Positions 2,283-63,930 of a DNA stretch of 64,000 bases are shown here, in pieces (position 1 is the first letter of the stretch; each line of letters starts with the position of its first letter). The stretch is from Escherichia phage UoN_LG358_1. Under the pieces are notes generated by a model. That model was not told where the DNA came from, searched no databases, and saw only the letters and a program-made list of their open reading frames with translations. Position numbers and translations under genes: made by a program. Where the stretch lies: the sequence record OK570374. One strand, 5' to 3'.

Positions 2283-2312
2283 ACTATAACACATACAACG
2301 GAGGATGTAAAC
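2283..2312 (-). promoter_or_regulatory. T4-type early promoter (-35 GTTTAC, 18-nt spacer, -10 TATAGT)
   Basis: - strand GTTTAC at 2312..2307 and TATAGT at 2288..2283; member of repeated promoter family. Confidence 0.6.
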
Positions 2313-2314
2313 GG

Positions 2315-2803
2315 TTAGACAAAACTTATTTTGACAGTTTTCTTAGCTTCTAGCTTAAGCTCTGTGATAAAAACACGATAATTATCACTTGGTGCCATAC
2401 GTAGTTCTTCTGCAATTTTCTTGGCTTTTTCTAAAGTAAAGAGGTTCTTTTCATTTTCTTTAAAAACGACTGCACTTCCACATTCAAGAGAGCGAACAAC
2501 CATGAATGTTTCAGGTCCTTCAGTCTCAGATTTAAACTCAATTTTTCCTTGATATACTTCATCAAAATCAAACAGGTTCCAGCCATTCCACTGCGAACCA
2601 CAATCTGCACCATCATAACGACCGCGAAATTGAGCGTCCAAAAATTCTACTTCAGTGATACACTTTCCACCAACGGATACTTTAGTGGCTTTAAGCCAAG
2701 CATTTCCGAACAAACATTTGATTTTGGCGTCAAATGAGTTCAAATCGACATCCCATTTATCAGTCATACGGAATACATCACCAACTTCAAAACATGTTTT
2801 CAT
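2315..2803 (-). CDS. hypothetical early protein (162 aa)
   Basis: ORF preceded by early-promoter module at 2853-2882. Confidence 0.5.
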   Translation of the reverse strand: MKTCFEVGDVFRMTDKWDVDLNSFDAKIKCLFGNAWLKATKVSVGGKCITEVEFLDAQFRGRYDGADCGSQWNGWNLFDFDEVYQGKIEFKSETEGPETFMVVRSLECGSAVVFKENEKNLFTLEKAKKIAEELRMAPSDNYRVFITELKLEAKKTVKISFV

Positions 2804-2852
2804 AATTTCCTCATTAAATTTAAACTAAGGCGGTATTGGTTATTGAGTTTAT

Positions 2853-2882
2853 ACTATAACACACTTTTATGCTGATGTAAAC
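2853..2882 (-). promoter_or_regulatory. T4-type early promoter (GTTTAC-N18-TATAGT)
   Basis: - strand GTTTAC at 2882..2877, TATAGT at 2858..2853. Confidence 0.6.
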
Positions 2883-2894
2883 GGCAGACTTTAG

Positions 2895-2924
2895 AAACAA
2901 AAAAGGGACTCCCGAAGGAGTCCC
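2895..2924 (-). terminator. intrinsic terminator (GGGACUCC-UUCG-GGAGUCCC + U-run on - strand)
   Basis: perfect 8-bp GC-rich stem with UUCG loop followed by U-tract in - strand sense, just downstream of small basic ORF. Confidence 0.6.
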
Positions 2925-2934
2925 TAACATTGCT

Positions 2935-8234: not shown

Positions 8235-8725
8235 AATTTGACAATTACCTCTACAATATCGTCTTGAGATAATCCATTCCATAAGACGTGATTTGGAGCA
8301 TCTGACTGGGACACTTTAAATCCTTGAATTTCATCTGCCATTTCTGACGAATCCATATACGGATTATGAATACCTAAGCGATGCTTACCATAAATTGGGT
8401 CAACCGTTATATAGCATTTACAATCATTAATAAGCACGTTAGGCTGAGTGATATTAATAATCACTTCTGCTCCATATTTTGTAAGCTGATTTTCAAGAAA
8501 ATTTTTCATTTCTTCAACAGCTTCAGGCATCGCTTCTTGGCGAGCCTCTGTAACTTTATTGTTGTACTCTTTTTGCTTTTTGCGCTTTTTCTGATCCGTG
8601 GCGAATGCCTTTCTGAGGTCAGTTAAGTATCCAACCCGCCGGGAACCTTTGAATACCGAGATACCGTCGTGATGAGTACCATACTTTTCTACTAAAGCTT
8701 CGTTAGTGATAAGTTGTAAGTTCAT
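8225..8725 (-). CDS. alc: Alc-like protein (host transcription shutoff), positional
   Basis: 166 aa ORF between pseT and rnlA as in T4; preceded by early promoter; sequence identity not verified. Confidence 0.5.
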   Translation of the reverse strand: MNLQLITNEALVEKYGTHHDGISVFKGSRRVGYLTDLRKAFATDQKKRKKQKEYNNKVTEARQEAMPEAVEEMKNFLENQLTKYGAEVIINITQPNVLINDCKCYITVDPIYGKHRLGIHNPYMDSSEMADEIQGFKVSQSDAPNHVLWNGLSQDDIVEVIVKLCK

Positions 8726-8755
8726 TGTTAATCTCCGTTTAGTTGGTGTAAGAAC

Positions 8756-8785
8756 ATAGTATCATAACAAAACGGAGATGTAAAC
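8756..8785 (-). promoter_or_regulatory. T4-type early promoter (GTTTAC-N18-TACTAT)
   Basis: - strand GTTTAC 8785..8780, TACTAT 8761..8756. Confidence 0.6.
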
Positions 8786-8789
8786 GGTC

Positions 8790-9920
8790 TTATTCGTATT
8801 CTTTTGGAATGAACGTTTTGTGGTTCTTCATGAACAGTTCATTGACCTTCTTGATAGTTGTATCATAGTCCATGTTGTCATTGAACATCAACATCAAAAT
8901 TGTAAACAAGAACGGTAAACGTTCAGCATCAGCCAGTCTCTTTGCCTCGCCTGCGTATGTTTTACGGTCTAAACCACGAAGTTTTTGATACGACGTAGAG
9001 ATAAACGACAATGAACGGCGCAGATAATCAAGATAAACTTCTTCGAACTTATTAATTTTCTTTAAAGAATAAGCATCGTTAGAAAAAAGTCCTTTGAGGT
9101 CATCAGAAGCGTTATTCACAATAACTTCAAATAGTCTATCATTTTTTGTGATAGAGTCCTTGGTGTGATGTAAAGCTGTGTACCAATCAGTCTTTAACTT
9201 AAATCGAAGACCATTGTCCATCACAAAAACATAACCTTCAATCCCTTCCATTGCTTTAATATCGGATACAAAATCTCCTTCCGGAATTTCATACGACTCT
9301 ACCAAATACTGACGAAGAACAGGGTCTTTAGCGATTTCGTTGTATGGAACATAAGCTCCAGTATCGTTTTCCCGGATATTCAAAAGAATAAGGTCTTTTT
9401 TCTGATAAGCGAGAACAATACGATTTTCAGGAGATACGTATTCAAAGTTAGCTGTAAAACCATCACGAGCTAGTTCAAGAAGTCTCCACAACAACGCTTC
9501 ATGAGTAATGCTAGTAAGCATAGCAGAAGACAAATAAGCTTGTTCAGATTTAAGCGAAGACTTTGATTTAAAGCGAAGAATATTGCCATCCAAATAGCTT
9601 GACACCAAAGAACCATCTTCTTTCTTCATCATATGAACCGCGTTAGAAAGATCGAGGTTCATTGTAAATGGAGTTTCATTTAAATTAAAGAATTTTTCCA
9701 TTGGTCTAGAAGCAATTCTTACTGGTACTCCGTCAATCATTTCAAACATAATGCCTCGACACTCTAAAGCATCTGGAAGCAACCAATCTGAATATGAAGC
9801 ATAGTTATAACTAAAAATTCTGTACTTTAGCCCAGACGGAGAAATATCATCACGATAAAAGAATCGTGATTCGTCCGTATCATTACATAAATTCATCAAA
9901 TTGTTGAATAGCTCTTTCAT
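8790..9920 (-). CDS. rnlA: RNA ligase 1
   Basis: 376 aa; MKELFNNLMNLC...YRIFSYNYASYSDWLLPDALECRGIMFEM...RPMEKFFNLNE matches recalled T4 Rnl1. Confidence 0.85.
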   Translation of the reverse strand: MKELFNNLMNLCNDTDESRFFYRDDISPSGLKYRIFSYNYASYSDWLLPDALECRGIMFEMIDGVPVRIASRPMEKFFNLNETPFTMNLDLSNAVHMMKKEDGSLVSSYLDGNILRFKSKSSLKSEQAYLSSAMLTSITHEALLWRLLELARDGFTANFEYVSPENRIVLAYQKKDLILLNIRENDTGAYVPYNEIAKDPVLRQYLVESYEIPEGDFVSDIKAMEGIEGYVFVMDNGLRFKLKTDWYTALHHTKDSITKNDRLFEVIVNNASDDLKGLFSNDAYSLKKINKFEEVYLDYLRRSLSFISTSYQKLRGLDRKTYAGEAKRLADAERLPFLFTILMLMFNDNMDYDTTIKKVNELFMKNHKTFIPKEYE

Positions 9921-11537: not shown

Positions 11538-12262
11538 TTATTCACCTTTGCTCTTCCTCTTATCCATCCTTCAGGAATAGTTTCAGAGGATTCAATTAAT
11601 TTATTCTTAAACCCGTCGTTTATACAAATTTTACCACGGGCTCCTTTATAATTTCGTGGTTTTATTTTATCAAAATTAGGAGTAAGCGAATACGACCATC
11701 TGAATCCGTAAGCATACTGGAAATGGCCTTCAGCGCAATATTTGATATTAGAACCGTTCCCATTAACTGATTTAGCAGCTTCGGATATAGAAGGAAATGT
11801 CTCTATGAAATTACCGTCTAAATCAAATTTGTGTATAGTTACAGAAACTTCTTCTGCCCTTTTAATTAATGGTAATTTAATCTTTTCTAAAGAATCTTTA
11901 GAGTGCTTTTTGCCAAGCATTCCCTTGGGGTGTGGGTTATTAGCTAAATATTCTTTCATATATTTAGAGGATTCTTCGGAAAATCTCTCTCGGTGCCAAG
12001 CATATAATCTATTATTAATTCTATTTCCGGATTTATCGGTGCACATTAAAGTGATAGCACATAATAAACCGTATGTTTTATGAATTTTATAAAGCAACTG
12101 ATGCGCAATAAAGTGTTCTCTTGCGCTCAATGCCACTAAGTTATCTTTATCATCTGAACCACCCATGCATCGGGGAATGATGTGGTGATTTTCGGTATAG
12201 CCGATGAAAGGAGAGGCTTTTCGCCTCTCCATTAAGCTATCATATATTCTTTGATAGTTCAT
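11534..12262 (-). mobile_element. free-standing HNH homing endonuclease (mobE-like) between nrdA and nrdB
   Basis: 242 aa; HNH motif HHIIPRCMGGSDDKDNLVALSAREHFIAH; start overlaps nrdA stop (TAATG); paralogous to ORFs at 43627 and 55322. Confidence 0.8.
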
Positions 12263-14903: not shown

Positions 14904-15215
14904 TCATACGGCCATTTTTCCTTTAATTACTGGGTGGCTTTCATAGTTTTTAAGAATAAAGTCGTTTATCTTCATATGAGTACAAACCCAATATAACTGC
15001 ATTTCAGTATCCCAATCTTCAAAACTATCTGGAAAATTAATTTCCAGTTCGCATAACTCTTTTGGCTCTCTGCAAAGAATTTCTTTACACTGTTCTGTAT
15101 GGTTCAAATATATGTGGGTATTGCCGCCAGTAAATACTAGATGCCCTGGTTTTAACCCAGTCATTTTAGCTATGATATGAATTAAAGCTCCGTAAGACGC
15201 GATATTAAATGGTAG
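14904..15215 (-). CDS. td: thymidylate synthase, exon 2
   Basis: exon begins CUACCAUUUAAUAUCGCG (LPFNIASYG) immediately after the intron-terminal G; C-terminal TS sequence. Confidence 0.85.
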   Translation of the reverse strand, partial: LPFNIASYGALIHIIAKMTGLKPGHLVFTGGNTHIYLNHTEQCKEILCREPKELCELEINFPDSFEDWDTEMQLYWVCTHMKINDFILKNYESHPVIKGKMAV

Positions 15216-18356: not shown

Positions 18357-18631
18357 TATAATTCTTCCTTAGCTTCTTTAAATGATTTTTTGAAATCTTC
18401 AACATATTCGATAGGAATCCAGAACCCAGAACCATAACCGTCTTCATAGCATGGGCACATATCGCAAAACTGTTGCCAATGAACAGTTTTACCTTCTACG
18501 GTGAAGGGAGCTTCCATTTCGCACAAAGACTCTTCAATAAGTTCAATCATCGCTGGATTTTTATCATAGATGCAGAAATTCCAAACACCTTTAACTGTGG
18601 AATCTTTAATGCTTTCACGCTGTAATTTCAT
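18356..18631 (-). CDS. hypothetical acidic Cys-rich early protein (91 aa)
   Basis: ORF with conserved promoter/leader cassette upstream. Confidence 0.5.
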   Translation of the reverse strand: MKLQRESIKDSTVKGVWNFCIYDKNPAMIELIEESLCEMEAPFTVEGKTVHWQQFCDMCPCYEDGYGSGFWIPIEYVEDFKKSFKEAKEEL

Positions 18632-18661
18632 TTTATTATCCTCATTTGTTTTGATAGGGTT

Positions 18662-18691
18662 ATAGTATCATAACCATAACCCGTTGTAAAC
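18662..18691 (-). promoter_or_regulatory. T4-type early promoter (GTTTAC-N18-TACTAT)
   Basis: - strand GTTTAC 18691..18686, TACTAT 18667..18662. Confidence 0.6.
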
Positions 18692-18693
18692 GG

Positions 18694-19074
18694 TCATTTG
18701 AAAATTTTTTGTAAAAGTTCAATGATTTCGTCTACGTTTTGTTTTGTAACAACACAATGAATTTTAGTTACACCGTCAGTATCTTTACATTCGTCGTCAA
18801 GAACTGGTTCTTCATATTCGCGAAAGCAATAGAACTCATTATCGTAAAGTTCAAAATAACAATCACCTAGACCATCGTCGCAAAAGCACTCACCATTAGC
18901 GCAGACAATTTCAGTTACAAAATATTGGTTGTCAAATAATTCTATAGATTTTACTTCAAACCAACCGCCATTTTCGTGGATAATATCTACCATCTCAGTA
19001 TTATTCAAAGGGCTTAAGCCAATAAAATCATTAATAAGCTCTGGGACTAGTTCGTATTTTTTGCCTATTTTCAT
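18694..19074 (-). CDS. hypothetical acidic Cys-rich protein (126 aa)
   Basis: ORF; CANGECFCDDGLGDCYFELYDNEFYCF. Confidence 0.45.
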   Translation of the reverse strand: MKIGKKYELVPELINDFIGLSPLNNTEMVDIIHENGGWFEVKSIELFDNQYFVTEIVCANGECFCDDGLGDCYFELYDNEFYCFREYEEPVLDDECKDTDGVTKIHCVVTKQNVDEIIELLQKIFK

Positions 19075-19088: not shown

Positions 19089-19316
19089 TTATTCTTTAAT
19101 CAAACCCATGTAAAACATTTTATCTTCAGGTTCCATGCCATCGCAGTACTCAATTTCCATAAAACGATTAATAGCTTTTAAAGGACCATTAATGACAACG
19201 TTCATGTTCCATGATTTGGAATTCTGTGAATTAGCGATACGAAGTTCTGGGTATCGATTACGAATAACTTCTTCAATGTATTCAAAATCTACAACATCAA
19301 TATCAACACTAGCCAT
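19089..19316 (-). CDS. hypothetical acidic early protein (75 aa)
   Basis: ORF with promoter/leader cassette upstream. Confidence 0.45.
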
Positions 19317-19346
19317 TTTATTTTCCTCGTTTGTTTTGATAGGGTT

Positions 19347-19376
19347 ATAGTATCATAACCATAACCCATTGTAAAC
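19347..19376 (-). promoter_or_regulatory. T4-type early promoter (GTTTAC-N18-TACTAT)
   Basis: - strand GTTTAC 19376..19371, TACTAT 19352..19347. Confidence 0.6.
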
Positions 19377-19378
19377 AA

Positions 19379-19636
19379 TTAATTGATATCACTCATATAC
19401 ATTTCGATATCTTCATATTCGCAAATTTCCAAATACTCACGGATATCTTCAACTTCACCAATGATTTCAACTAAAGGCCATCCGCCAGCGGGTCCACGTT
19501 CTGCTATAACGTTAAACTCCAATTTACCAGGAAGAATTTCCATGAACCGAGTGCAATCATCAAATTCTAAATCAATAATCATTCCGCCTTCGTCTTTGAT
19601 AATTTCACATACTAAGTCAAGTTCTAAACGTGCCAT
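19379..19636 (-). CDS. hypothetical acidic early protein, paralogue A
   Basis: MARLELDLVCEI...GGWPLVEI; start set at the second ATG because the first ATG lies inside the conserved leader (AUGAAGGA = SD). Confidence 0.5.
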   Translation of the reverse strand: MARLELDLVCEIIKDEGGMIIDLEFDDCTRFMEILPGKLEFNVIAERGPAGGWPLVEIIGEVEDIREYLEICEYEDIEMYMSDIN

Positions 19637-19667
19637 GATATTTTCCTTCATTTGTTTTGATAAGGTA

Positions 19668-19697
19668 ATAGTAACACAGTTTAAAGCGGATGTAAAC
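19668..19697 (-). promoter_or_regulatory. T4-type early promoter (GTTTAC-N18-TACTAT)
   Basis: - strand GTTTAC 19697..19692, TACTAT 19673..19668. Confidence 0.6.
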
Positions 19698-19840
19698 AGT
19701 TAATTGCAAATTTCTGCATCAACTTTACTCTTTCACAACTTAATTCATTGCCTAGAAAAATCATATACAATAGTCATTTGAACTCAATAACATCGTATGA
19801 GGTTATACCATAACTATAACCTCATAATGTAGTATACGTA

Positions 19841-20101
19841 TTATTGTTCCATAAATTCATCTAGCAACCAATCAATGTCTTCCCATTGATTATCTTCAAG
19901 CCATTTGCGGATATTTTTTTCAGACCCGCGAAGATAAATCACTGGCCAGCCGCCGCCGGTGCCTTCTTCGATTATAAGGTCAAAATCAAGACCATGGTCA
20001 ACATCATAAAAACGGCTTCCATCCTCAAAAATTAAATCAGTTGCAATTCCACGCTCATTGCGGTGAACTTCAGCTACAATATCAAGTTCTAAACGTGCCA
20101 T
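19841..20101 (-). CDS. hypothetical acidic early protein, paralogue B
   Basis: MARLELDIVAEV...GGWPVIYL; tandem paralogue of 19379-19636. Confidence 0.5.
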   Translation of the reverse strand: MARLELDIVAEVHRNERGIATDLIFEDGSRFYDVDHGLDFDLIIEEGTGGGWPVIYLRGSEKNIRKWLEDNQWEDIDWLLDEFMEQ

Positions 20102-20132
20102 TTTCAATTTCCTCATTTGTTTTGATGAGATA

Positions 20133-20162
20133 ATAGTAACACAGTTTTTGGAGGATGTAAAC
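20133..20162 (-). promoter_or_regulatory. T4-type early promoter (GTTTAC-N18-TACTAT)
   Basis: - strand GTTTAC 20162..20157, TACTAT 20138..20133. Confidence 0.6.
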
Positions 20163-20170
20163 GGTTAGCT

Positions 20171-20204
20171 CCAGAAACAACAAAGGAGCCCGTAGGCTCC
20201 TTTT
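20171..20204 (-). terminator. terminator hairpin downstream of gene 32 (GGAGCC-CGUA-GGCUCC)
   Basis: 6-bp GC stem flanked by U/A-rich tracts on both strands. Confidence 0.5.
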
Positions 20205-32806: not shown

Positions 32807-33075
32807 TTGTTTGTGTGCATCGTCAGATGACGATAGATATCTTCAAACCCTTCATTAAATTCTTCAACGAGCATTCCTTTCTCTTCCGCAGTTAAATCAG
32901 AAATTATTTTTCTAAAGCTACTCTGATTTAACTGCTTCCAATTTTTATCATTACTCATTGTTTCATTAATAAAAGCAATAAAGTTATCTCGTTTATCAAC
33001 AATATCATCGCGACCAAATTTAATTAACAAAGACGCAATAGTAACAACTTCACGAGCAACTTCAAACTTAGTCAT
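32803..33075 (-). CDS. asiA: anti-sigma70 factor AsiA
   Basis: 90 aa; ...TIASLLIKFGRDDIVDKRDNFIAFINE...LNQSSFRKIISDLT...EEFNEGFE matches recalled T4 AsiA. Confidence 0.9.
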   Translation of the reverse strand: MTKFEVAREVVTIASLLIKFGRDDIVDKRDNFIAFINETMSNDKNWKQLNQSSFRKIISDLTAEEKGMLVEEFNEGFEDIYRHLTMHTNN

Positions 33076-33125
33076 CTTATATCCTTTAGTATTTAATTTT
33101 TAAATCAGTAAAACAGTATAGAAGT

Positions 33126-33155
33126 ATAGTATCAAAATTTTATGATGTTGTAAAC
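33126..33155 (-). promoter_or_regulatory. T4-type early promoter (GTTTAC-N18-TACTAT), asiA
   Basis: - strand GTTTAC 33155..33150, TACTAT 33131..33126. Confidence 0.6.
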
Positions 33156-33166
33156 GGTTAAGTGAA

Positions 33167-34404: not shown

Positions 34405-35014
34405 TATTTTCTTGAGTGCGAGCGATATCTAAGTAAATATTTCCATTTTTTGAATGCTTGGCAGTCATACCAAGGTCTTCAAAGTGCTTAACTTGGTCGT
34501 CAGTCATTTTATAACCGGAAATACGGAAGTTACCTTTATTACTAACTTCAAAACTACGAATACCAAAAGTACGTTTTTCGAGAACCGCGATAAAGTTACT
34601 ACGATAAACATCAAGTTTTTTGATTTTGAAAAGTTCTTCTTTAGTTCCAAGAAGCTCCATCATAAAATCTTTATCTGCTTCCATGTCGCCAGTAATTGGG
34701 CGGGCTTTACGAGTATTACGTTTTTCTAAAAGTTCAGGAGCATTTTCCTGCGCATAAAGTACCGCCGCGTTTGAAATGATGTCCTGTGCTTCACCTGTGA
34801 TTACTAAACCATCACCAGATTTTTCAATTAATCCCTTCTTAATCAAAACACCAATATTACTGTTAACTGAAGATGATGTCATTTTATCTTCTAACTGCTC
34901 ACGAAGTTCAGCTGAAGTAACGAAATCTTGTTTAGCGACTTTAACTAAAATCGATGCAGTTTTTTCATTAAGAACATCATTAGAAGCTTTGATGATATAA
35001 GTTACTTTTGACAT
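34370..35014 (-). CDS. motA: middle transcription activator MotA
   Basis: MSKVTYIIKASNDVLNEKTA...NSNIGVLIKKGLIEKSGDGL...AQENAPELL matches recalled T4 MotA; start set at MSKVTY rather than the track's upstream Met. Confidence 0.9.
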   Translation of the reverse strand: MSKVTYIIKASNDVLNEKTASILVKVAKQDFVTSAELREQLEDKMTSSSVNSNIGVLIKKGLIEKSGDGLVITGEAQDIISNAAVLYAQENAPELLEKRNTRKARPITGDMEADKDFMMELLGTKEELFKIKKLDVYRSNFIAVLEKRTFGIRSFEVSNKGNFRISGYKMTDDQVKHFEDLGMTAKHSKNGNIYLDIARTQENIETIINSVDTL

Positions 35015-35052
35015 TTTATTTCTCCGATAATCTATTTGTTTGGTATGAAGTA

Positions 35053-35082
35053 ATAGTAACACAGTTTAAAGCAGATGTAAAC
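35053..35082 (-). promoter_or_regulatory. T4-type early promoter (GTTTAC-N18-TACTAT), motA
   Basis: - strand GTTTAC 35082..35077, TACTAT 35058..35053. Confidence 0.6.
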
Positions 35083-35084
35083 GG

Positions 35085-35363
35085 TTAGTTGTAAAATTTT
35101 ACGATAACTGCATTACCGTCTTTGAAGAGACCGTATTCAACACCATCAATTGTGATGATTTTACAAGGATACAAACAGTTGTTAATGAAAACTTTAGATT
35201 TGCCACGAACTGCTTTAATTTCAGTCCCGACACGGTTTGCATCAACTGTTTCTTTAAAGTTATTGTAGTAAAAACCATCTTCTTTAATTACAGAAACAGT
35301 CATTACACCACCGAAAGAACGATTGAAAGCGATAAGTTTAGTAGCCATAATTTTATTCTCCAA
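35085..35363 (-). CDS. hypothetical protein (92 aa)
   Basis: ORF with early promoter upstream. Confidence 0.45.
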   Translation of the reverse strand: MENKIMATKLIAFNRSFGGVMTVSVIKEDGFYYNNFKETVDANRVGTEIKAVRGKSKVFINNCLYPCKIITIDGVEYGLFKDGNAVIVKFYN

Positions 35364-35397
35364 GTTGTTTTGTTTACCATTTATTTGGTATGAAGTA

Positions 35398-35427
35398 ATA
35401 GTATCAAATCTTAAAGCAGAAGTAAAC
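35398..35427 (-). promoter_or_regulatory. T4-type early promoter (GTTTAC-N18-TACTAT)
   Basis: - strand GTTTAC 35427..35422, TACTAT 35403..35398. Confidence 0.6.
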
Positions 35428-35664
35428 GGCTGAAGTGAAATTTTTTAAAGTTAACCAGAACGGTTTAGAGGAACGCGGAAGAAAGGATGATTAATTATAT
35501 GGACCGGGCTCTAGAATTTACTAGAGCCGTATAGAGTTATAGCAAAATGAAGAGAAGTGCAAGAATAAGGGCTAAACCGCCTAAAACTACGACGATTGAC
35601 AACAACCCAGCCACCAAGACCGGACTCGCATACCAAAGAAAAACCGCTAATGAAATTATCAGAG

Positions 35665-37502: not shown

Positions 37503-37949
37503 TTAATATTTCTGCAGAATAAATTTAAAATTATCATTTAACATGCGATTCATTTCTTCGAGGTTCTGAAATGCATCTTCGTGCTTACGAGTGAAAGCTA
37601 AAGACAATTGACCTTTACCATAGCCCGTTGTAAGAAGTTTCATTTTTTCAGCTGGAACGAATACCACACTATAAACTTGATGATTATTGCTCAAAGTGCG
37701 GCCAAGTTGAGAGCGTCCTTGACGAAATTGCGACAAAGTATTAGAAAACCCTGTTTTAGACCGTTGACGACCAACGTAACTACGAGATACTGCAAAACCG
37801 CCGTTATTCATAATAAAATAAAACCCTGGGCGAGATAGTTCTTCTTCCATAGGAACACCACACAGCCAGTTTGCGTTTTTAATCGTGCCAATTACAGTTG
37901 CGCCAGCTTTTGATAAAGTTTCGATAGACAAAAATGTACGACGGGTCAT
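37503..37949 (-). CDS. ndd: nucleoid disruption protein Ndd
   Basis: 148 aa; ...AGATVIGTIK...PGFYF...YVGRQRSKTGFS...RSQLGRT...KMKLLTTGYGKGQLSLAFTR...LEEMNRMLNDNFKF matches recalled T4 Ndd. Confidence 0.8.
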   Translation of the reverse strand: MTRRTFLSIETLSKAGATVIGTIKNANWLCGVPMEEELSRPGFYFIMNNGGFAVSRSYVGRQRSKTGFSNTLSQFRQGRSQLGRTLSNNHQVYSVVFVPAEKMKLLTTGYGKGQLSLAFTRKHEDAFQNLEEMNRMLNDNFKFILQKY

Positions 37950-38114
37950 ATTGATATCCTCAAGTTAAGTAATTTATTATCCTATAGTATCACATCTTTC
38001 AATTGTTGTAAACAGTTATGATAGTTTCCACAACAATAAGCTAAAACAAACGCAAATCAATGGGATAGATAATATCCAAATTAAACACCAAGCTTTACTG
38101 CTCATGATTATCTC

Positions 38115-38324
38115 TTAGTAATCTGCTAGCATGTCAACAATAGAATCGCGAAAATATTTAATGTTAATACGCTTAAAATCAATATCGCACTGTTTCGCCC
38201 CGGAAATAATCATTGAATTAAGTTCAGCTTCCAAAAATTGAAGTTCTTTCACGCATTCATTTTTATACTTAGCCATACCATGTTTTGCTTTGGCTTTCTT
38301 AAGATTAGATGAAGTGAATTCCAT
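38115..38324 (-). CDS. hypothetical early protein (69 aa)
   Basis: start set at MEFTSS; the track's MCYYYLIKTNE N-terminus is the translated promoter/leader cassette. Confidence 0.45.
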   Translation of the reverse strand: MEFTSSNLKKAKAKHGMAKYKNECVKELQFLEAELNSMIISGAKQCDIDFKRINIKYFRDSIVDMLADY

Positions 38325-38354
38325 TGGTTTATCCTCATTTGTTTTGATGAGATA

Positions 38355-38384
38355 ATAGTAACACATCCTTCCATGGATGTAAAC
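38355..38384 (-). promoter_or_regulatory. T4-type early promoter with palindromic spacer (GTTTAC-N18-TACTAT)
   Basis: - strand GTTTAC 38384..38379, TACTAT 38360..38355; spacer contains CATCC-AUGGAA-GGAUG inverted repeat. Confidence 0.6.
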
Positions 38385-38393
38385 GGCTGATAG

Positions 38394-40175: not shown

Positions 40176-40184
40176 AATTACCTC

Positions 40185-43460: not shown

Positions 43461-43505
43461 AAATATCTCTATTGTGAGGTATATCAATGATTAGCCCGAA
43501 GGCTA
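43461..43505 (-). other. 60: untranslated coding gap of gene 60 (translational bypass), begins with UAG inside a UUCG-capped hairpin
   Basis: mRNA GAU GGU UAG CCUUCGGGCUAAUCAUUGAUAUACCUCACAAUAGAGAUAUUU GGC ACA GGG UCA; near-identical in layout to the T4 gene 60 gap as recalled. Confidence 0.6.
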
Positions 43506-43640
43506 ACCATCAACATCAGCATCAGTCATGATGGCAATGTTTTTATAATTCAAAGAAGAAGTTGATGTACGACGTACAATTGTCTGGGCTTTATATGATT
43601 TCATATCAATTTCAGTTTCTTTAACTTTAGCAAATTTCAT
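43506..43640 (-). CDS. 60: gp60 proximal coding segment (45 codons, ends at take-off codon GGU)
   Basis: MKFAKVKETEIDMKSYKAQTIVRRTSTSSLNYKNIAIMTDADVDG then UAG; resembles recalled T4 gp60 N-terminus including the basic nascent-peptide signal. Confidence 0.65.
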
Positions 43641-47036: not shown

Positions 47037-47212
47037 TAAGAAGTTCCGTTTTCATTGATGTAACGAACTACCGCATAGATTGCACGGCTGTTTTCGTAAA
47101 CGTAGGCGTATGTGTGATGTTCTAGATGTCCTTGAACTTCTTTTTGCACAATAGTCAACTCTGGATTGAACAAGATATCTTCAAACTGCTCTTGTGTTAA
47201 AATGCGGTTCAT
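47018..47212 (-). CDS. hypothetical early protein (about 64 aa)
   Basis: start set at second ATG; first ATG is part of the conserved leader. Confidence 0.4.
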   Translation of the reverse strand: MNRILTQEQFEDILFNPELTIVQKEVQGHLEHHTYAYVYENSRAIYAVVRYINENGTSYWKETI

Positions 47213-47243
47213 TTTATTTTTCCTCATTTATTTTGATAGGGTT

Positions 47244-47273
47244 ATAGTATCATAACCCTCAAGGAAAGTAAAC
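47244..47273 (-). promoter_or_regulatory. T4-type early promoter (GTTTAC-N18-TACTAT)
   Basis: - strand GTTTAC 47273..47268, TACTAT 47249..47244. Confidence 0.6.
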
Positions 47274-47275
47274 GG

Positions 47276-47728
47276 TTAAACTTTTACGCTCAGAAAACGG
47301 GTTGAACGGATTACTGCTGGGATAACTAAATCCAAATCTTTAGTAGCCATTAAAGCGTATTCACCCTGATAAACCACGTTCGCAACTTCTTCGCCGTCAA
47401 TATCATAAACCAAGGTAACTAATCCACACTTACGGTCACAAATGTGACAGTCTCCCTGACCGCCGGAATGCTCGATTGCTGCATCTGCGTTTCGAATTCG
47501 TACAATATCGCCAATTTCAATAACACAACGCTGAGAAGCTTCTTTCGTATAAGTGTTGTTTTCAGACACATAGTAGTCTTTTACATAAATTGTGTTATTA
47601 GTTTTAACATCGCGCAGACGATATCCATCACGCTTTGAATGACCTAGAACAATACCAACACGACCAGCATTTTTACCACTAATTACACGAAGTTCAGTAC
47701 CTTTAACAAACATATTATCACCTTTCAA
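47276..47728 (-). CDS. hypothetical protein (150 aa)
   Basis: ORF. Confidence 0.45.
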   Translation of the reverse strand: MKGDNMFVKGTELRVISGKNAGRVGIVLGHSKRDGYRLRDVKTNNTIYVKDYYVSENNTYTKEASQRCVIEIGDIVRIRNADAAIEHSGGQGDCHICDRKCGLVTLVYDIDGEEVANVVYQGEYALMATKDLDLVIPAVIRSTRFLSVKV

Positions 47729-50327: not shown

Positions 50328-51106
50328 ATTTTGCCTCGGATAAGTTGTAACAATGTTGCAGAAAGTGGAAGACCTTTTTTCAGCTTCGCTTTATCCAAAC
50401 GAGATAAATTTTGGAAACGAGTAAGACCTTGAATAATAATATCATAATCTTTCACGGTGATTTCTGCTTTGCTATTCTTTTTGGATGCAGCGCCTGAAGT
50501 TACAGCTTCAGAAGACGGGTATTTTTCAAATATTCTCTTTAATGTTTTAATTCCGCCTTTGATGCGAGTTTCTAGAGAATCGCGAGTGTCTTTCTGTATT
50601 CCGGCTTGCTTAAGATGACTGCGGCGGGCCTGCACGTTTGCCCAAATGCGTTTAGCTTCTTCACGGCGGACACCGGAAATTTTAGACCAATCAGGCTCTT
50701 TGTTCCAATCATGAGTTTCTAATACAAAGTCAGAATGATTGAGGTCAACAGCAGGTTCTACAACTTTGTTTTTAGAGTCAACGGCGGAAACGATGCGCGC
50801 AGCTAGTTCTTCTTGCTTTTTAATGAGGTCATCAATTTCGAAGTTGGCGCGCAGTTTATTGTACTTCATTTTAACAGGAATAACGTTGCCTTCTACATAT
50901 CCTTTGTTGTTATCAAACCGCTCGAGAGTCATTTGGTCAGGTCCAAGTTCCTTCTTGAACTTTTCTCCTGAATATGCACAAGTATCTTGCTCCATGATGT
51001 TCATCAAGTACTTCAAAGAAAGATTAAATTCTTTACTTCTAGAAGAAGCACTTTTGTATGTATGAACCAAACGTTGAGCGATAACAATTTCACGAGGCAT
51101 GGCCAT
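50324..51106 (-). CDS. hypothetical protein (260 aa), in the position of T4 srd
   Basis: ORF with early promoter upstream; identity not verified. Confidence 0.4.
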   Translation of the reverse strand: MAMPREIVIAQRLVHTYKSASSRSKEFNLSLKYLMNIMEQDTCAYSGEKFKKELGPDQMTLERFDNNKGYVEGNVIPVKMKYNKLRANFEIDDLIKKQEELAARIVSAVDSKNKVVEPAVDLNHSDFVLETHDWNKEPDWSKISGVRREEAKRIWANVQARRSHLKQAGIQKDTRDSLETRIKGGIKTLKRIFEKYPSSEAVTSGAASKKNSKAEITVKDYDIIIQGLTRFQNLSRLDKAKLKKGLPLSATLLQLIRGKM

Positions 51107-51161
51107 AACGATATTCCTTATTTGCTTTTTATGCGAAGATGGTATAATGGTTTCAAGGATT

Positions 51162-51191
51162 ATTCTAATACACTCTATCCGGAAAGTAAAC
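51162..51191 (-). promoter_or_regulatory. early promoter-like element (GTTTAC-N18-TAGAAT)
   Basis: - strand GTTTAC 51191..51186 with weaker -10. Confidence 0.4.
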
Positions 51192-51193
51192 GG

Positions 51194-51826
51194 TTAGAAT
51201 GAATAAAAATCCAAATGATATACAGTATATGACGGAGATAAAGGGTCATACTGTAACTCTTCAATCTCCACTATCTCAAATTGTGTTCCAATAGGGAACA
51301 TCCATTCATCTTCTCCATTGACCATTTCAAGTTTATCCAGTCTTTCATCAAAAATAAAATCTGGGTCTATGCTGTGCATAAATTCTGTGTCTGGCGCAGC
51401 CAGAAGCATATTCAGTGCGTGCTCTTGATAGTTAAAAGCAAATGGGCAATTACGTAATGACAAAATAGTATGAGTACCATACACACTCCCTCCAGCGAAT
51501 TGTCTTGCTGTGGAAAAATCTGATGTAAATGACGTAACTCGGTCATCAGCAATAATTCTTCCTACAGCCATATTTTTCAACCAAGCTTCGGTACGTTTTG
51601 ACACTCCTCTGTAGAGTTCAACTGGAACGTCAGAACTAATATGCTTACGTATAATTTTGTCCAGTTCTACATGCAAAGTTTTGTCAATTTTATCATTCAT
51701 ACACTGCCAAAGTATGCTCTGTTCAAAATCACTGAACATCTTAATTTTTTCTTCATACAATCCATAGAGATTGTTATCAACTATGTTACAAACGATTTCA
51801 TTAAGCTGAGAATTTGTGTATAACAT
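51194..51826 (-). CDS. ADP-ribosyltransferase (ModA/ModB-like)
   Basis: 210 aa; R-S-E triad candidates: LYRGVS, FTSDFSTA, FEIVEIEE; position of T4 modA/modB. Confidence 0.55.
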   Translation of the reverse strand: MLYTNSQLNEIVCNIVDNNLYGLYEEKIKMFSDFEQSILWQCMNDKIDKTLHVELDKIIRKHISSDVPVELYRGVSKRTEAWLKNMAVGRIIADDRVTSFTSDFSTARQFAGGSVYGTHTILSLRNCPFAFNYQEHALNMLLAAPDTEFMHSIDPDFIFDERLDKLEMVNGEDEWMFPIGTQFEIVEIEELQYDPLSPSYTVYHLDFYSF

Positions 51827-51852
51827 AATAGCCTCCGTAGTTTACAGAAGCT

Positions 51853-51882
51853 ATCATAACACATTTTGACTGGGATGTAAAC
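51853..51882 (-). promoter_or_regulatory. T4-type early promoter (GTTTAC-N18-TATGAT)
   Basis: - strand GTTTAC 51882..51877, TATGAT 51858..51853. Confidence 0.55.
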
Positions 51883-51884
51883 GG

Positions 51885-52079
51885 TTATTCTGTCCACGGA
51901 GCCCAAGGAGGAGGGTCTAACCAGATAGAAGAGAGTTCTTCTACGAAAGTGTCGTTGAGTTTTACACCGTGCCGTAAGGCAAGAACAAAAAGCTCTTGTT
52001 TGATTTCAGCACGTCGGTTGCCAAATGCTTCTGAATTTTTTGACTGGTCTTCTTCAAATAAATCAAATAAATCCGACAT
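51885..52079 (-). CDS. hypothetical protein (64 aa)
   Basis: ORF. Confidence 0.4.
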   Translation of the reverse strand: MSDLFDLFEEDQSKNSEAFGNRRAEIKQELFVLALRHGVKLNDTFVEELSSIWLDPPPWAPWTE

Positions 52080-53054: not shown

Positions 53055-53082
53055 TCGTTTAAAAGCAAAAAAGGGACTCCCG
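53055..53082 (-). terminator. intrinsic terminator after soc (GGGACUCC-UUCG-GGAGCCCC + U-run)
   Basis: hairpin and U-tract in - strand sense 16 nt after soc stop. Confidence 0.6.
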
Positions 53083-53097
53083 AAGGAGCCCCTGCAA

Positions 53098-55322: not shown

Positions 55323-55954
55323 TATACTCTCCTAAAATCGTCTATAATTTTTTGATAACTAATATCCGGATATCCCAATTTAATTGCTAATTTTCTAAAT
55401 TTAACATATCCTATATTACCATTAGAGTTCCAAAGCTCTTTTAATTCATCGTAGTATTTCCATTGAGGGCCTCTTTTCATTTCTGAAATTATTTTAGAAA
55501 CATGTGGTCTACGTTTGCCATATGTTGCGCTTCCACTACCCTTTCTTTTTTCTGACCACATCTTTTTGGTTTCAATGGAATGTGTTTTTCCATAAAATGG
55601 GTTTCCTTTACCGGAGTAAAGACTAGATTGAGTTTTTGATAATTGAGTTCTAATCCAACTATATTCCTTATTGTTTCTGCTAGTATATTTTCCATTTATA
55701 GTTAATTGCTTAGCAGCGCATAATAACGAATAATATTGCTTTGTGTTCAATTTTTTATATATTTTTGATAACAATTGATGAACTACGAAATGTTCTGATG
55801 CTGTAAGCAAAACCAAATTATCATCACTATCTAGTCCTCCAATAGATTTTGGAATTATATGATGTTTTTCTGAATAAAAATTTAATTTAGATTTATCCAG
55901 TCCTCGTAATTTAGCTTTGTTGATAATAGAATCATGTATCTTTTGATAATTCAA
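55322..55954 (-). mobile_element. free-standing HNH homing endonuclease between genes 41 and 61
   Basis: 210 aa; HNH motif HHIIPKSIGGLDSDDNLVLLTASEHFVVH; start codon is TTG (AGGAGA-N5-TTG AAT TAT) where paralogues have ATG AAT TAT. Confidence 0.75.
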
Positions 55955-55966
55955 TGCATTCTCCTA

Positions 55967-56686: not shown

Positions 56687-56977
56687 TTAAAGTCCAATCC
56701 ATTCCAGCACTTCAGGAACTGATTTATTTTCACAATAAAGATTAGTGCCAGCAACTACCAAATCATTCTGGTCGACATCTTCAATGAGCATCTTTTGATT
56801 CGCATTAGCTCCAGCAAGAAGGTCTTTAATTAGCTTAGGTTTTACCGTATCCCAATCACCTTCGACAAATTTAAGGCATTGAATAGAATTATAATCAGCT
56901 ACTCCCGGAGTTGCATGGGCTGGAACTGCTGAACATGATGCTACTACCAATACGAGACTTGCAATTAACTTTTTCAT
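56687..56977 (-). CDS. secreted/periplasmic protein with signal peptide (about 96 aa)
   Basis: MKKLIASLVLVVASCSAVPAHA signal peptide; start set after promoter at 57006-57035. Confidence 0.45.
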   Translation of the reverse strand: MKKLIASLVLVVASCSAVPAHATPGVADYNSIQCLKFVEGDWDTVKPKLIKDLLAGANANQKMLIEDVDQNDLVVAGTNLYCENKSVPEVLEWIGL

Positions 56978-57005
56978 TATTACTCTCCAGTTTGTTGATA
57001 AAGTA

Positions 57006-57035
57006 ATAGTATCACATCCTTCCATGGATGTAAAC
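57006..57035 (-). promoter_or_regulatory. T4-type early promoter with palindromic spacer
   Basis: - strand GTTTAC 57035..57030, TACTAT 57011..57006. Confidence 0.6.
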
Positions 57036-57037
57036 GG

Positions 57038-57262
57038 TCAACTCAAACTTTTCATTGCTTCTTCAAACGTTAATTTTTTAACTGAAAGATACCGCGCCGA
57101 GCTAATTTTCTTACCATTGCTAAGGACGACCAGTGTCCCGTAGTCCCATCCTGATAAATCTATTGAGTTCCATATATCAACACATACTTGTAGTGACTCA
57201 TCCGCTACTATGAACTTCTCGTGACCATCTCGGTCACGATTGGCAATTAAAACATAAATCAA
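57038..57262 (-). CDS. hypothetical protein (74 aa)
   Basis: ORF overlapping gene 41 stop. Confidence 0.4.
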   Translation of the reverse strand: MIYVLIANRDRDGHEKFIVADESLQVCVDIWNSIDLSGWDYGTLVVLSNGKKISSARYLSVKKLTFEEAMKSLS

Positions 57263-61589: not shown

Positions 61590-62422
61590 AGTGTCGGTTC
61601 AATCTCGCTAAATTTATGAAAAGCATCTGACTTCTGCTTTTTAGCAACACACATACGAAGTACTTTCAAAGGTTCATCAGTACCAAACATAGTTTTGGTT
61701 GGGTCACCTTCTGATTTCCACCGAGCTTGAGTTGGGAAGTCAGCATGAATTTTTTCCAGCGCTCTGTTCTGTTTAGCAGCATTACGCATAGATGATACAC
61801 CGCCTGGAGCTTGTCCTTTACCTGATTTAACGAGATATTTAAAAATCGCCAAATGAGGATAACCCATATTAATGAGTTTAAGAAACGCGTATGTATCTTC
61901 GGATAGGTCTACTATACCATATCCAATGTCATCGGCAGAAAGTTTGCTTAAATCATAAAAAGTATTTGTAAACCCGTAAGAGTTCTCACGGAAATGACCC
62001 CATTTAGAGTCAATCTTGAATATTGGCAAGCGAGCGTGACCATGATAAAAGCCGCAGTCCATCGCTGTTTCAACATAAAGACAAAGATTATTAAATTCAT
62101 CCCAGGTCATTCCAACATCATGGAGAATGCGCCGGTCATCTTTTTCGCGAATTTCCGTTGTATGAATAGTAGTATCATCATCCAACATCCAAATTCGTTG
62201 TCCTTGATACATTTCGGTGATTAAACGACGAGTACCAGCAATCCCATTTACATCATCCGGGATAGTTACTATTTTAGCAATTGTGCTATATCGAGTTTCG
62301 TATTCTTCTTTTTGAGACTCGCGAACTACAAGATGAGCGACATAACCTTCAGGGAACATGTCTAGGGCAGTAACTGCCCCGGCACGATTATAACTTGGAA
62401 TTACAAATTGAATCATTTCCAA
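61586..62422 (-). CDS. GT-A fold glycosyltransferase (second DNA glycosyltransferase candidate)
   Basis: 278 aa; FVIPSYNRAG start and DxD-type motif IWMLDDDTT. Confidence 0.5.
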   Translation of the reverse strand: MEMIQFVIPSYNRAGAVTALDMFPEGYVAHLVVRESQKEEYETRYSTIAKIVTIPDDVNGIAGTRRLITEMYQGQRIWMLDDDTTIHTTEIREKDDRRILHDVGMTWDEFNNLCLYVETAMDCGFYHGHARLPIFKIDSKWGHFRENSYGFTNTFYDLSKLSADDIGYGIVDLSEDTYAFLKLINMGYPHLAIFKYLVKSGKGQAPGGVSSMRNAAKQNRALEKIHADFPTQARWKSEGDPTKTMFGTDEPLKVLRMCVAKKQKSDAFHKFSEIEPTL

Positions 62423-63150
62423 TAACCTTTGTAATCTTTCTTTGGTATATGAGTTTCACCAGTGTGATAAAAATGGTCAACTAGATAAAATTGATTTTCA
62501 TATACATGGAGGCTTCCGGCGTTCCAAATAATGTCACCAACTACATATTTTTTATCGCGACCGCAGTTAAGTGTCTGTACTAATAATTCTAATACATGTT
62601 TTTGCCAAGCATAGTCATTACGATAACCTGCCCAGCAATCGTTGCTTCTCATACTCACAACAGCATGAACTTGCTCATCGCGAATTAAGTATTGAACCGT
62701 GTTTGTACACATGAAATCACTCATACCGTCACGGTTATAATCAGTCTGCATACTTGGACGAGTATAAATCATAATTCCACGGCGAGAATCTGGATTGACA
62801 CTCAGTTCAGCCGCACAACTTGCAAATTGGCTATAATTATCTTTATTCCAAATCGCCCATCCGTAGTTTGAGTTAATCTCGCCGTTTTTGGATGAAATCT
62901 GGTCCCAAATTGCTGGAGTTTTTCCTGGAATGTCTTTAACGAATAAACTTTGAGACTTATACCATTCTAATTCGCGGGCTACATACTCATCATTAACTGA
63001 ACCAAAAATAAGTTCTTCATCTGCAACAAAAGACGCGCCGATAATTTCAATAGTTTTTACGCCAGTTTTGTCAATAACAAACTCTTCATTTTCGAGAGCT
63101 ACAGCAAATTCCTGACGAATGTCTTGTACTGTCAAAGGTGTGATAATCAT
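62413..63150 (-). CDS. 42: dCMP hydroxymethylase gp42
   Basis: 245 aa; ...DKTGVKTIEIIGASFVADE...RELEWYKSQSLFVKDIPG...PDSRRGIMIYTRPSMQ.DYN.DGMSDFMCTNTVQYLIRD matches recalled T4 gp42. Confidence 0.9.
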   Translation of the reverse strand: MIITPLTVQDIRQEFAVALENEEFVIDKTGVKTIEIIGASFVADEELIFGSVNDEYVARELEWYKSQSLFVKDIPGKTPAIWDQISSKNGEINSNYGWAIWNKDNYSQFASCAAELSVNPDSRRGIMIYTRPSMQTDYNRDGMSDFMCTNTVQYLIRDEQVHAVVSMRSNDCWAGYRNDYAWQKHVLELLVQTLNCGRDKKYVVGDIIWNAGSLHVYENQFYLVDHFYHTGETHIPKKDYKGYWK

Positions 63151-63434
63151 TTTGCCTCTTTAATTACGATAATTTGTTGAGGTTGGTTATTTTTTCGCTC
63201 GGCGACGAATGCCCAAATTAAAGCAACCAACCATCCAATGAAAGTCCAACCAAAAATAAGATTTAAAAAGAAAATTCCAACATTAGATTTTGTCCCACGA
63301 AGAAGAGCAATAATCCACGGAAGAAAATACGCTAAAAACGCTAAGAACAATGAACCAAAACCAAGTGCCGCTGTACCCAATACGATAGTTTCCATTATAA
63401 TTTCCTCTATTTTATCAAATGATTTATTTAGCAT
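63147..63434 (-). CDS. small two-TM membrane protein, Imm-like by position
   Basis: two hydrophobic helices; directly upstream of gene 42. Confidence 0.45.
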   Translation of the reverse strand: MLNKSFDKIEEIIMETIVLGTAALGFGSLFLAFLAYFLPWIIALLRGTKSNVGIFFLNLIFGWTFIGWLVALIWAFVAERKNNQPQQIIVIKEAK

Positions 63435-63870
63435 TTTTAGCCATACATTTATTAAAAGCTTTCACTTTTCCGCCTGAACGATAATGAATAACTGCCAGAC
63501 GAGTTTTATTATTTGGATTTTTGAAGTATTGTTCACGAAGAACTTCTTCATGAGCTTCTACCACAAATTCACACATTCTGATAGCTTTTTCCTTTTTATC
63601 GAGTGCAGCTTGACGTTCATCACCTTCAGCTACTGATTTTTTAATTGCAGCTTCAAGCGGACTATTCGCGCGCCGTTCTTCAATTTCTTTAATAGCGTTA
63701 AGAGTTTCCTGCGAGACTTGAGAAGTTGCACGAGTATAAACCATCCCAGAAGCTGGTTTGTAAACCAAATTACCTTCACTTCCATAATGTGGTTGCGAAT
63801 AAGGTTGAATAGAACAACCTGCTAAAGTAGTTGCTGCTAGAACAATCAGTGATTTCAAATTAAATTTCAT
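63424..63870 (-). CDS. putative lipoprotein
   Basis: MKFNLKSLIVLAATTLAGCS signal/lipobox; start set at MKFNL. Confidence 0.45.
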   Translation of the reverse strand: MKFNLKSLIVLAATTLAGCSIQPYSQPHYGSEGNLVYKPASGMVYTRATSQVSQETLNAIKEIEERRANSPLEAAIKKSVAEGDERQAALDKKEKAIRMCEFVVEAHEEVLREQYFKNPNNKTRLAVIHYRSGGKVKAFNKCMAKNAK

Positions 63871-63900
63871 TTTATTTTCCTCATTTGTTTTGATGAGATA

Positions 63901-63930
63901 ATAGTAACACATCCTTCCATGGATGTAAAC
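63901..63930 (-). promoter_or_regulatory. T4-type early promoter with palindromic spacer
   Basis: - strand GTTTAC 63930..63925, TACTAT 63906..63901. Confidence 0.6.

Follow-up and report, generated by a model that had tools for sequence, protein, structure and literature searches.

What is the element of roughly 65 nt that recurs before a series of early genes in a 64,000-nucleotide stretch of Escherichia phage UoN_LG358_1 (sequence record OK570374; here called the window), and does it serve to express those genes, to exchange them, or both? A preliminary description made from the sequence alone had seen in it a cassette of early promoter, leader and Shine-Dalgarno (SD) sequence of the promoter early stem-loop (PeSL) kind. 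That identification holds, as the copies carry the -35, TGn and -10 elements of T4-type early promoters and the same form stands before motA and asiA in T4. With a probability of about 85%, the modules are T4-type sigma-70 early promoters fused to a 5' untranslated region (5'UTR), an SD sequence and a start codon, related to one another by descent and usable as crossover sites. The window belongs to a T4 relative of the S16/STML-198 type in the genus Gelderlandvirus. An 8-kb stretch of it is 94-96% identical to the Gelderlandvirus phages ABTNLPp2 (Proteus) and STML-198, CF-SP2, S16 and Melville (Salmonella), which are the five relatives used for the indel comparison below, and co-linear alignment places the window at STML-198 positions ~700-64,500. 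Gene names, assigned by homology to the relatives' annotations, run in order through the gene 30.x region, nrd/td/frd, gene 32, the long tail fibre genes (plus strand), asiA, motA, 52, ndd, denB, rIIB/rIIA, 39/60, cef, motB, dexA, dda, srd, modA, soc, 56, 61, sp, 41, uvsX, beta-gt, 42, imm and the end of gene 43.

Probable promoters of the T4 early class

A search of the window for GTTTAC-N18-TACTAT, with up to one mismatch allowed, gave 13 matches, all exact and all on the minus strand, where shuffled sequences led to an expectation of 0.39 and a maximum of 2; four further copies carry the -10 variants TATAGT (twice), TATGAT and TAGAAT. When a weight matrix was built from these 17 copies, the copies scored 23-38 bits and nothing else exceeded 10 bits on either strand. 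The matrix search proposed in the preliminary description therefore leaves a clean repeat, well separated from background, with 17 members instead of about 16, while the range originally given stands, the outermost copies lying at 2283-2312 and 63901-63930. Generic sigma-70 consensus scans were non-discriminating (78, 59, 35 and 51 sites against 69, 62, 34 and 47 expected from shuffles), so that the phage-specific matrix alone separates the modules.

The modules, numbered 1 to 17 below, measure 64-93 nt (64-69 nt in 10 of them), all lie on the minus strand in the orientation of the early genes, and all end at the SD sequence and ATG of an early gene. Their invariant core is (A)CC-GTTTAC-N15-TGn-TACTAT, that is, TTTACA, a 17-bp spacer and an extended -10, and it spans -5 to +30 relative to the G of GTTTAC, as (t)aACC GTTTAC AtC ... 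TgTG. TActAT. An independent consensus scan likewise read the copies as TTTACA, 17 bp and TACTAT with TG in front. Whereas the -35 (GTTTAC/TTTACA), the spacer of about 17 bp and a -10 of the form TAnnAT are present in every copy, the TGn extension (positions -15 to -13) is found in 16, the exception being the module at 51191. The upstream open reading frame (ORF) ends 3-12 nt before GTTTAC in 11 of the 17, including the ends at 57038, 51885, 51194, 47276, 35085, 19379, 18694, 8790 and 2315, and the conserved AACC 5' of GTTTAC usually holds the stop codon of the upstream gene.

The same arrangement recurs outside the window. T4 has GTTTAC-N18-TACTAT before motA, GTTTAC-N18-TATTAT before asiA and two more copies in the ndd region, and in other genera motA, asiA, cef and alc likewise have an orthologous promoter in front of them. 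Matches to the motif occur in 625 phage records, and it is annotated as 'predicted early promoter' in related Tequatrovirus records, fPS-65 among them. A matrix scan of the complete S16 genome returned 26 matches on the early strand and one weak match on the opposite strand, while the late structural block at 64-115 kb had no match. In IMG/VR, a pattern scan showed that T4-like genomes of 155-175 kb each contain many copies of the motif. The T4 early class consists of sigma-70 promoters with UP, -35, TGn and -10 elements (Hinton 2010, PMC2988021), and the PeSL promoters of PST and T4 follow the consensus TTTACW-N17-TAYWAT (Comeau et al. 2014, PMC4122927). By analogy with T4, host RNA polymerase would fire the modules immediately after DNA injection, transcripts would start about 7 nt after TACTAT, and the A-rich leader of 20-49 nt would load ribosomes on a host-takeover or accessory gene. 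A literature search returned no paper linking Gelderlandvirus with early promoters or PeSLs; Gelderlandvirus is an added genus for this known T4 early promoter and PeSL design.

Spacer and leader families and recombination between modules

Beyond the core, the copies share sequence in families. Three copies had been called nearly identical, and this is so for two of them, 38384 and 63930, which are identical over 52 nt from GTTTAC to GAGGA, whereas the copy at 57035 matches them in the promoter only (29 of 30 nt) and continues into a different leader. The spacer palindrome CATCCATGGAAGGATG, earlier said to occur often, is present in just 3 of the 17 copies and is a subfamily trait rather than a defining feature. 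A leader AUCAAAACAAAUGAGGAAAAUAAA-AUG is common to 7 copies at at least 70% identity, and this shared AUGAGG-type leader may also be written AUCAAAACAAAUGAGG (about 7 copies); the remaining copies have other, differing leaders of 20-49 nt. Three spacers are 94-100% identical and two more spacer pairs are 94% identical, identity of 94-100% in spacers and leaders links copies up to 25 kb apart, and leader families cut across spacer families to give mosaic combinations within the window. Because this identity lies at positions unconstrained by the promoter, and because the combinations are mosaic, the copies are best regarded as related by descent and exchange, not by convergence alone.

The modules also disturb gene calling, as had been anticipated. 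Longest-ORF calling carries 8 of the 17 genes into the module, with the spurious extensions MCYYYLIKTNE (twice), MRKNK, MRKLK, MKENI and MEGCDTITLSTNWRVI, one GTG start and one TTG start, and public annotations of the lipoprotein gene after module 63930 diverge likewise, at 489 nt in S16 versus 447 nt in STML-198. In ABTNLPp2, at ~14608 (concatenated coordinate 64608), the lipoprotein-like gene that follows the module has lost its ATG to a 5-nt deletion, and the record annotates for this gene a longer ORF that begins within the promoter. The frd.3 leader, AUCAAAACAAAC in the window, is a run of 12-16 A in STML-198 (~19933), ABTNLPp2 (22020) and Melville (24722; the last two in concatenated coordinates), representing either homopolymer slippage in the 5'UTR or a sequencing artefact.

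Alignment of the window with the five relatives yielded 26 distinct indel or replacement events, 5 of which touch a module. ABTNLPp2 and Melville have an extra ORF of 391 nt inserted within the leader of module 16 (2882). CF-SP2 is without the DNA between modules 13 and 14 (19376/18691), that is, frd.2/frd.3 are missing, and retains one hybrid module, whose upstream flank comes from one of the two and whose leader, with the gene behind it, comes from the other. Upstream of motA, an 87-aa ORF (35085-35348, MATKLIAFNRSF...) with its own module at 35427 occurs in the window but in none of the five relatives. The slot is reduced to a single module in S16, STML-198, ABTNLPp2 and Melville, whereas in CF-SP2 the two modules enclose another, different ORF. 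The sole database homologue of the 87-aa ORF, at 84% amino acid identity, lies in Citrobacter phage CF1 (Moonvirus) in the same slot between gene 52 and motA, which there holds a second ORF as well. This ORF was sought elsewhere in S16, STML-198, ABTNLPp2, Melville, CF-SP2 and IMG/VR loci with no matches, so that transfer between different loci could not be shown. In S16, a different leader and a tiny ORF come after the promoter at 38384, and the breakpoint falls within the leader; CF-SP2 is without the ORF abutting module 57035; and the sp promoter has different spacers in different relatives, always before the same leader. Events with both ends in modules number 3 against 0.36 expected (P=0.006), and two of them are deletions after which one in-register hybrid module remains, with an overlap of 63-67 nt. 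The 5 module-touching events exceed a per-base null (P=0.005). The 35-70 nt shared at gene boundaries would let phage homologous recombination delete, insert or replace the gene between two modules and would leave one hybrid module, which is the published PeSL mechanism; this outcome is seen at the CF-SP2 frd.2/frd.3 deletion and at the slot upstream of motA.

Several observations weigh against reading the modules as early promoters of the PeSL kind that promote exchange. An A+T-rich UP element was looked for upstream of the -35 (-40 to -60) and none was found, the A+T content being 62-64% from -60 to -15 against 63% for the window, with enrichment (0.73) at -15 to -5 alone. Start sites and early timing are assigned by homology, and 6 of the 17 modules are without a detectable hairpin. 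Module-led genes are only weakly more variable than others (5 of 17 versus 10 of 85, P=0.07), and most indels lie away from modules, at homing-endonuclease or intron events or at junctions with 7-15 nt of microhomology. Finally, since 17 of 102 minus-strand gene junctions carry a module, a gene-junction null predicts 5.6 module-touching events against the 5 observed, and under it the apparent enrichment disappears. The recombination hotspot of the preliminary description is accordingly supported only in part, by the hybrid modules and the excess of events with both ends in modules, but indel ends are not commoner here than at other gene junctions; similarly, the comparison of flanked ORFs with relatives bears out the crossovers and the variable slot upstream of motA, though not a clear excess of variable genes behind modules. 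The modules are real crossover substrates that, in this sample, are not used more than other gene junctions.

The agreement of 5 observed with 5.6 expected boundaries, and the many non-module indels that use short microhomologies, would also suit pure regulatory convergence, in which the same selection for strong promoters and ribosome sites shapes every copy, recombination has no role, and indels fall at modules merely because modules sit at gene boundaries. This explanation is unlikely. It does not account for near-identical spacers and leaders, which sigma-70 does not read, in copies many kilobases apart, for the recombined spacer and leader families, for the two deletions that leave an in-register hybrid module, or for the excess of events with both ends in modules. 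Relatedness by descent, with modules serving as crossover sites, fits these features better.

Other differences among the relatives were recorded. Homing-endonuclease-type insertions that differ between them lie at 15215-16228, 43460-44552, 55334-55958 and 11549-12258, none at a promoter module; they comprise an ORF of 245 aa that splits td, another of 237 aa in the topoisomerase 39/60 region, one of 210 aa next to primase with no counterpart in the five relatives, and a mobE-like gene in place of which CF-SP2 has a dam methylase. STML-198 has a 1.57-kb insertion after denB (39304-40871; window 38881-38951) with a DNA methyltransferase and one ORF; what seems to be a direct repeat of ~70 nt borders the insertion, the same window segment aligning on both sides. 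In the gp38-like adhesin gene (31826-32047, plus strand), ~220 nt of this receptor-recognition gene could not be aligned to any of the five relatives, a pattern that would suit the swap of a host-range determinant.

Hairpins in and around the promoters

Among the 17 modules, a hairpin is found in the spacer in three, over the -10 in three, and between the promoter region and the SD sequence in three, while two have a canonical terminator 14-16 nt upstream. The spacer hairpins fold at -8.6 kcal/mol (z -2.1), those flanking the -10 at -10.7 to -14.3 kcal/mol (z -3 to -4.7), and those pairing with the SD sequence have z scores of -3.1 to -3.95. A wider set of 157 non-redundant promoters, each followed by an SD sequence and an ATG and taken from the window, S16 or IMG/VR, was surveyed with register shifts and mismatched halves as controls. 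In 29 of these (~18%), the spacer and the sequence after the -10 form at least 6 consecutive Watson-Crick pairs in a single register (i+j=49), and 18 different arm sequences are used; neighbouring registers hold 0-4 such promoters (9 in register 43), and in 2000 trials with mismatched halves the mean was 3.4 and the highest count 10. The -10 hairpin persists among orthologous cef promoters with arms that differ, AGGGTTAT/ATAACCCT, AGGGCTAT/ATAGCCCT and TGGTAGGAGC/GCTCCTACCA, the last from an orthologue at 47% protein identity whose arms are entirely different.

A second arrangement pairs the untranscribed part of the promoter with the SD region. Complementarity of at least 8 bp was present in 13 of the 157 promoters (~8%), where 300 null trials gave 1.6 on average and 6 at most, and alc orthologues show a compensatory change, CCGTTT/AAACGG versus CCATTT/AAATGG. 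For the modules at 8785 (alc), 2312 (30.7) and 51882 (modA), the predicted probability that the SD sequence is unpaired falls from 0.70-0.77 in the module's own transcript, with its start placed as above, to 0.12-0.20 in read-through RNA, a drop matched by no more than 2% of upstream shuffles. SD sequestration is not general, as only 3 of the 17 modules are individually significant and 5 go the opposite way. Further promoters of this type stand before S16 regB and, in Tequatrovirus-sized contigs, before an ORF beginning MTRINLTL, which we take to be denV. In the S16 regB promoter (S16 genome 56624), the spacer TTTCTCCTCT complements the regB SD region AGAGGAGAAA over 10 bp; T4 regB is tightly autoregulated at its SD sequence. 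GGAG followed by an A-rich stretch, a RegB-target-like sequence, occurs in 6 of the 17 leaders (57035, 51882, 35427, 35082, 8785 and 2312), and S16 encodes RegB, the regB gene lying outside the window.

In read-through RNA, the 5' arm of such structures would find its partner either in the first part of the promoter's own transcript or, further downstream, in the SD and AUG; the ribosome site would stay accessible only in RNA begun at the module. It is put forward tentatively, at somewhat less than even odds, that selection keeps a sizeable minority of the early promoters embedded in RNA hairpins, and does so in several genera of T4-like phages. The combination of SD sequestration with an early promoter is a variant that was not found described in the literature, and its function is presumptive.

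The hairpins might instead be the main function of the modules, which would then be terminator or attenuator plus promoter insulators isolating each small gene transcriptionally. A terminator scan flags the spacer palindrome with the U-rich -10 region as terminator-like, the two upstream canonical terminators fit the same idea, and a PeSL stem-loop of RB49 terminated transcription in a reporter assay (PMC2839356). The stems in the window are short, however (6-10 bp, -8 to -14 kcal/mol), the sequence after the -10-flanking hairpins is A-rich and not U-rich, more than a third of the modules are hairpin-free, and the SD-pairing type points to translational rather than transcriptional control. Insulation as the principal role is improbable, at about one chance in five, with early promoter function the preferred account of the modules as a whole.

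Individual modules and comparison with known systems

All modules are on the minus strand. Module 1 (63868..63935; -35 at 63930-63925, -10 at 63906-63901, ATG at 63870) serves a 148-aa lipoprotein-like gene, homologous to S16 gp27, just downstream of DNA polymerase (gene 43); it combines the spacer palindrome ACATCC-ATGGAA-GGATGT with the AUGAGG leader, and its spacer hairpin has the energy given above for that class (-8.6 kcal/mol, z -2.1). Module 2 (56975..57040) serves sp (spackle) and has the spacer palindrome of module 1 with a different leader and a GGAG SD; the sp leader follows a different spacer in STML-198, ABTNLPp2 and Melville. Module 3 (51824..51887; -10 TATGAT) serves a modA/modB-like ADP-ribosylase, and a predicted hairpin of 16 bp joins its -10 and discriminator to the SD and AUG (fold -28.1 kcal/mol, z -3.1); in read-through RNA the predicted probability of an unpaired SD falls from 0.71 to 0.20. 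The weakest is module 4 (51104..51196), which serves srd and has the -10 TAGAAT, no correctly placed TGn and a leader of 49 nt. Module 5 (47210..47278) serves cef, with the inverted repeat AGGGTTAT / ATAACCCT around the -10 (-10.7 kcal/mol, z -3.05); module 6 (38322..38389) serves a 69-aa ORF between denB and ndd and shares its 52 identical nt with module 1; and module 7 (37947..38018) serves ndd.

Module 8 (35346..35432), with a 43-nt leader and a GGAG SD, serves the 87-aa ORF that has no counterpart in any of the five relatives, and module 9 (35012..35087), which with module 8 bounds the variable slot, serves motA and has a GGAG SD followed by an A-rich stretch; module 10 (33073..33160) serves asiA. 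The spacers of modules 8 and 9 contain TGCTTTA, which resembles a MotA box (35407-35421 and 35062-35076), and the phage encodes both MotA and AsiA, so the modules might be thought MotA/AsiA-dependent middle promoters. In middle promoters a MotA box, TGCTT, is centred at -30 in place of the -35 element and stands 11-13 nt from the -10. TGCTTTA is only 8 nt from it, the S16 and STML-198 orthologues read CGCTTTA, the other 15 modules are without a box, motA and asiA are themselves among the genes served, and GTTTAC is intact in all 17 modules, whereas middle promoters are without a -35 (PMC2988021); middle promoters are a very improbable explanation. TGCTTTA was rejected as a MotA box for its wrong spacing and its lack of conservation in orthologues, and is probably not functional.

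Modules 11 (20099..20167) and 12 (19634..19702) serve paralogues of 86 and 85 aa beginning MARLELD. A terminator-like hairpin, AAAGGAGCCTACGGGCTCCTTT (20182..20203, minus strand, scored on the plus strand too), precedes module 11 by 14 nt. The two paralogues (19379-19636 and 19841-20101) are in tandem, with 42% amino acid identity and one module each, and their flanking 158 nt repeat at 72% identity, which points to an old duplication that took in both the gene and its promoter cassette. Module 13 (19314..19381) serves a frd.3 homologue and has the inverted repeat GGTTAT / ATAACC around the -10, and module 14 (18629..18696) serves a frd.1 homologue with a hairpin across the -10 (-14.3 kcal/mol, z -4.65). 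In module 15 (8723..8790), which serves alc, the spacer ATCTCCGTTT complements the SD region AAACGGAGAT (-13.7 kcal/mol, z -3.1). Module 16 (2801..2887; -10 TATAGT) serves a 162-aa ORF homologous to S16 gp130 and lies 16 nt downstream of a strong intrinsic terminator, AGGGACTCCTTCGGGAGTCCCT then T6 (2904..2925, minus strand). Near-identical strong intrinsic terminators, AGGG(A/G)CTCCTTCGGGAGTCCCT plus a T-run with a UUCG loop, are at 2904-2925, 42897-42918 and 53072-53093 (minus strand); the first alone adjoins a promoter module, and the three look like a second repeated regulatory cassette. Module 17 (2242..2317; -10 TATAGT) serves a gene 30.7 homologue, and its spacer CTCCGTTGTAT pairs with the SD region (-19.5 kcal/mol, z -3.95).

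The genes served are all non-structural and non-replicative. They had been called non-core, which is loosely right, but 8 of the 17 (motA, asiA, ndd, alc, modA/B, srd, cef and sp) belong to the named and conserved genes of host takeover and are not shuffled orphans. That the repeat is a selfish mobile element, MITE-like (miniature inverted-repeat transposable element) or linked to homing endonucleases, with promoter-like hexamers by chance, is hardly credible in spite of its multiple copies of ~65 nt, the near-identity of distant copies and the several homing-endonuclease insertions in the window, as it has no terminal inverted repeats or target duplications, is strictly uniform in orientation, sits in each case exactly between a stop and a start codon at positions orthologous across genera and in T4, and coincides with no homing-endonuclease event.

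The 17 coordinates provide an early-promoter map and corrected start codons for S16-like phages, in which 8 genes are prone to mis-annotated N-termini; S16-like phages are used for Salmonella biocontrol. They extend PeSL-type cassettes to another genus, the same element family being present in T4, T2 and Moonvirus, and temper the hotspot idea, since modules are usable crossover sites not favoured over other gene junctions in this sample. The hairpins around early promoters, supported by covariation, offer a testable link from promoter choice to translation. If the hairpins act in the RNA, the promoter from which a transcript came would decide whether these early genes are translated: ribosomes could use only own-promoter RNA, while read-through RNA would stay silent and might be shielded from RegB. 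The T4 late-gene trick (e, soc, 49) would then extend to immediate-early genes, and the PeSL stem-loop would gain a translational rather than a terminator role.

Among known systems, the PeSLs are the closest. Their layout comprises an upstream stop codon, an A+T-rich region, a sigma-70-like early promoter, a stem-loop, an SD sequence and an ATG, and the stem-loop takes five positions, of which the spacer between the -35 and -10 and the -10 itself are the commonest (Arbiol et al. 2010, PMC2839356); the spacer palindrome fits this definition because a PeSL stem-loop may lie between the -35 and -10. The window modules share with the PeSLs of RB49/phi1 (PMC2839356) and of T4/PST and KVP40/nt-1 (PMC4122927) the layout from upstream stop to SD and ATG, the deletion that leaves one chimeric element, and cassette replacement between two elements, and their consensus is that of the T4/PST PeSL promoters. 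RB49 PeSLs differ in their near-perfect TTGACA/TATAAT boxes and G-rich stems, and the window differs from PeSLs in that no more than about 11 of the 17 modules carry a hairpin or adjoin a terminator and that, in this sample, the association with indels is not above the gene-junction background. The promoter/leader elements of the ip locus (Repoila et al. 1994) are, as far as the papers citing them describe (PMC2839356, PMC4122927), similar in their conserved promoter and leader. A window module aligns at 81-84% over 65 nt to elements before ipI-type genes in T2, RB14, fPS-65 and hundreds of other records, the alignment including the inverted repeat that flanks TACTAT; unlike the ip elements, the window family is spread over many early loci and is not confined to ip.

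With the T4 early promoters, the modules share the GTTTAC -35, the TGn, the TAnnAT -10 and equal spacing, as well as genes (motA, asiA, the ndd region) and placement on the early-gene strand. They differ in having (T)AACC 5' of GTTTAC, where T4 has the A/T-rich TTTCACAAAAC(A/G), and in that an A+T-rich UP-like region is undetectable in the window copies. In the long transcripts of the T4 genes e, soc, 49 and I-TevI, a hairpin that has a promoter within it sequesters the ribosome site (Uzan & Miller 2010, PMC3014915). The arrangement at alc, 30.7 and modA is the same in that the SD and AUG are predicted to pair with sequence present only in read-through RNA, with the promoter between the arms, but the internal promoter of the T4 genes is late (TATAAATA) and that of the window is the sigma-70 early module, so that translation would be restricted to the earliest transcripts instead of being delayed.

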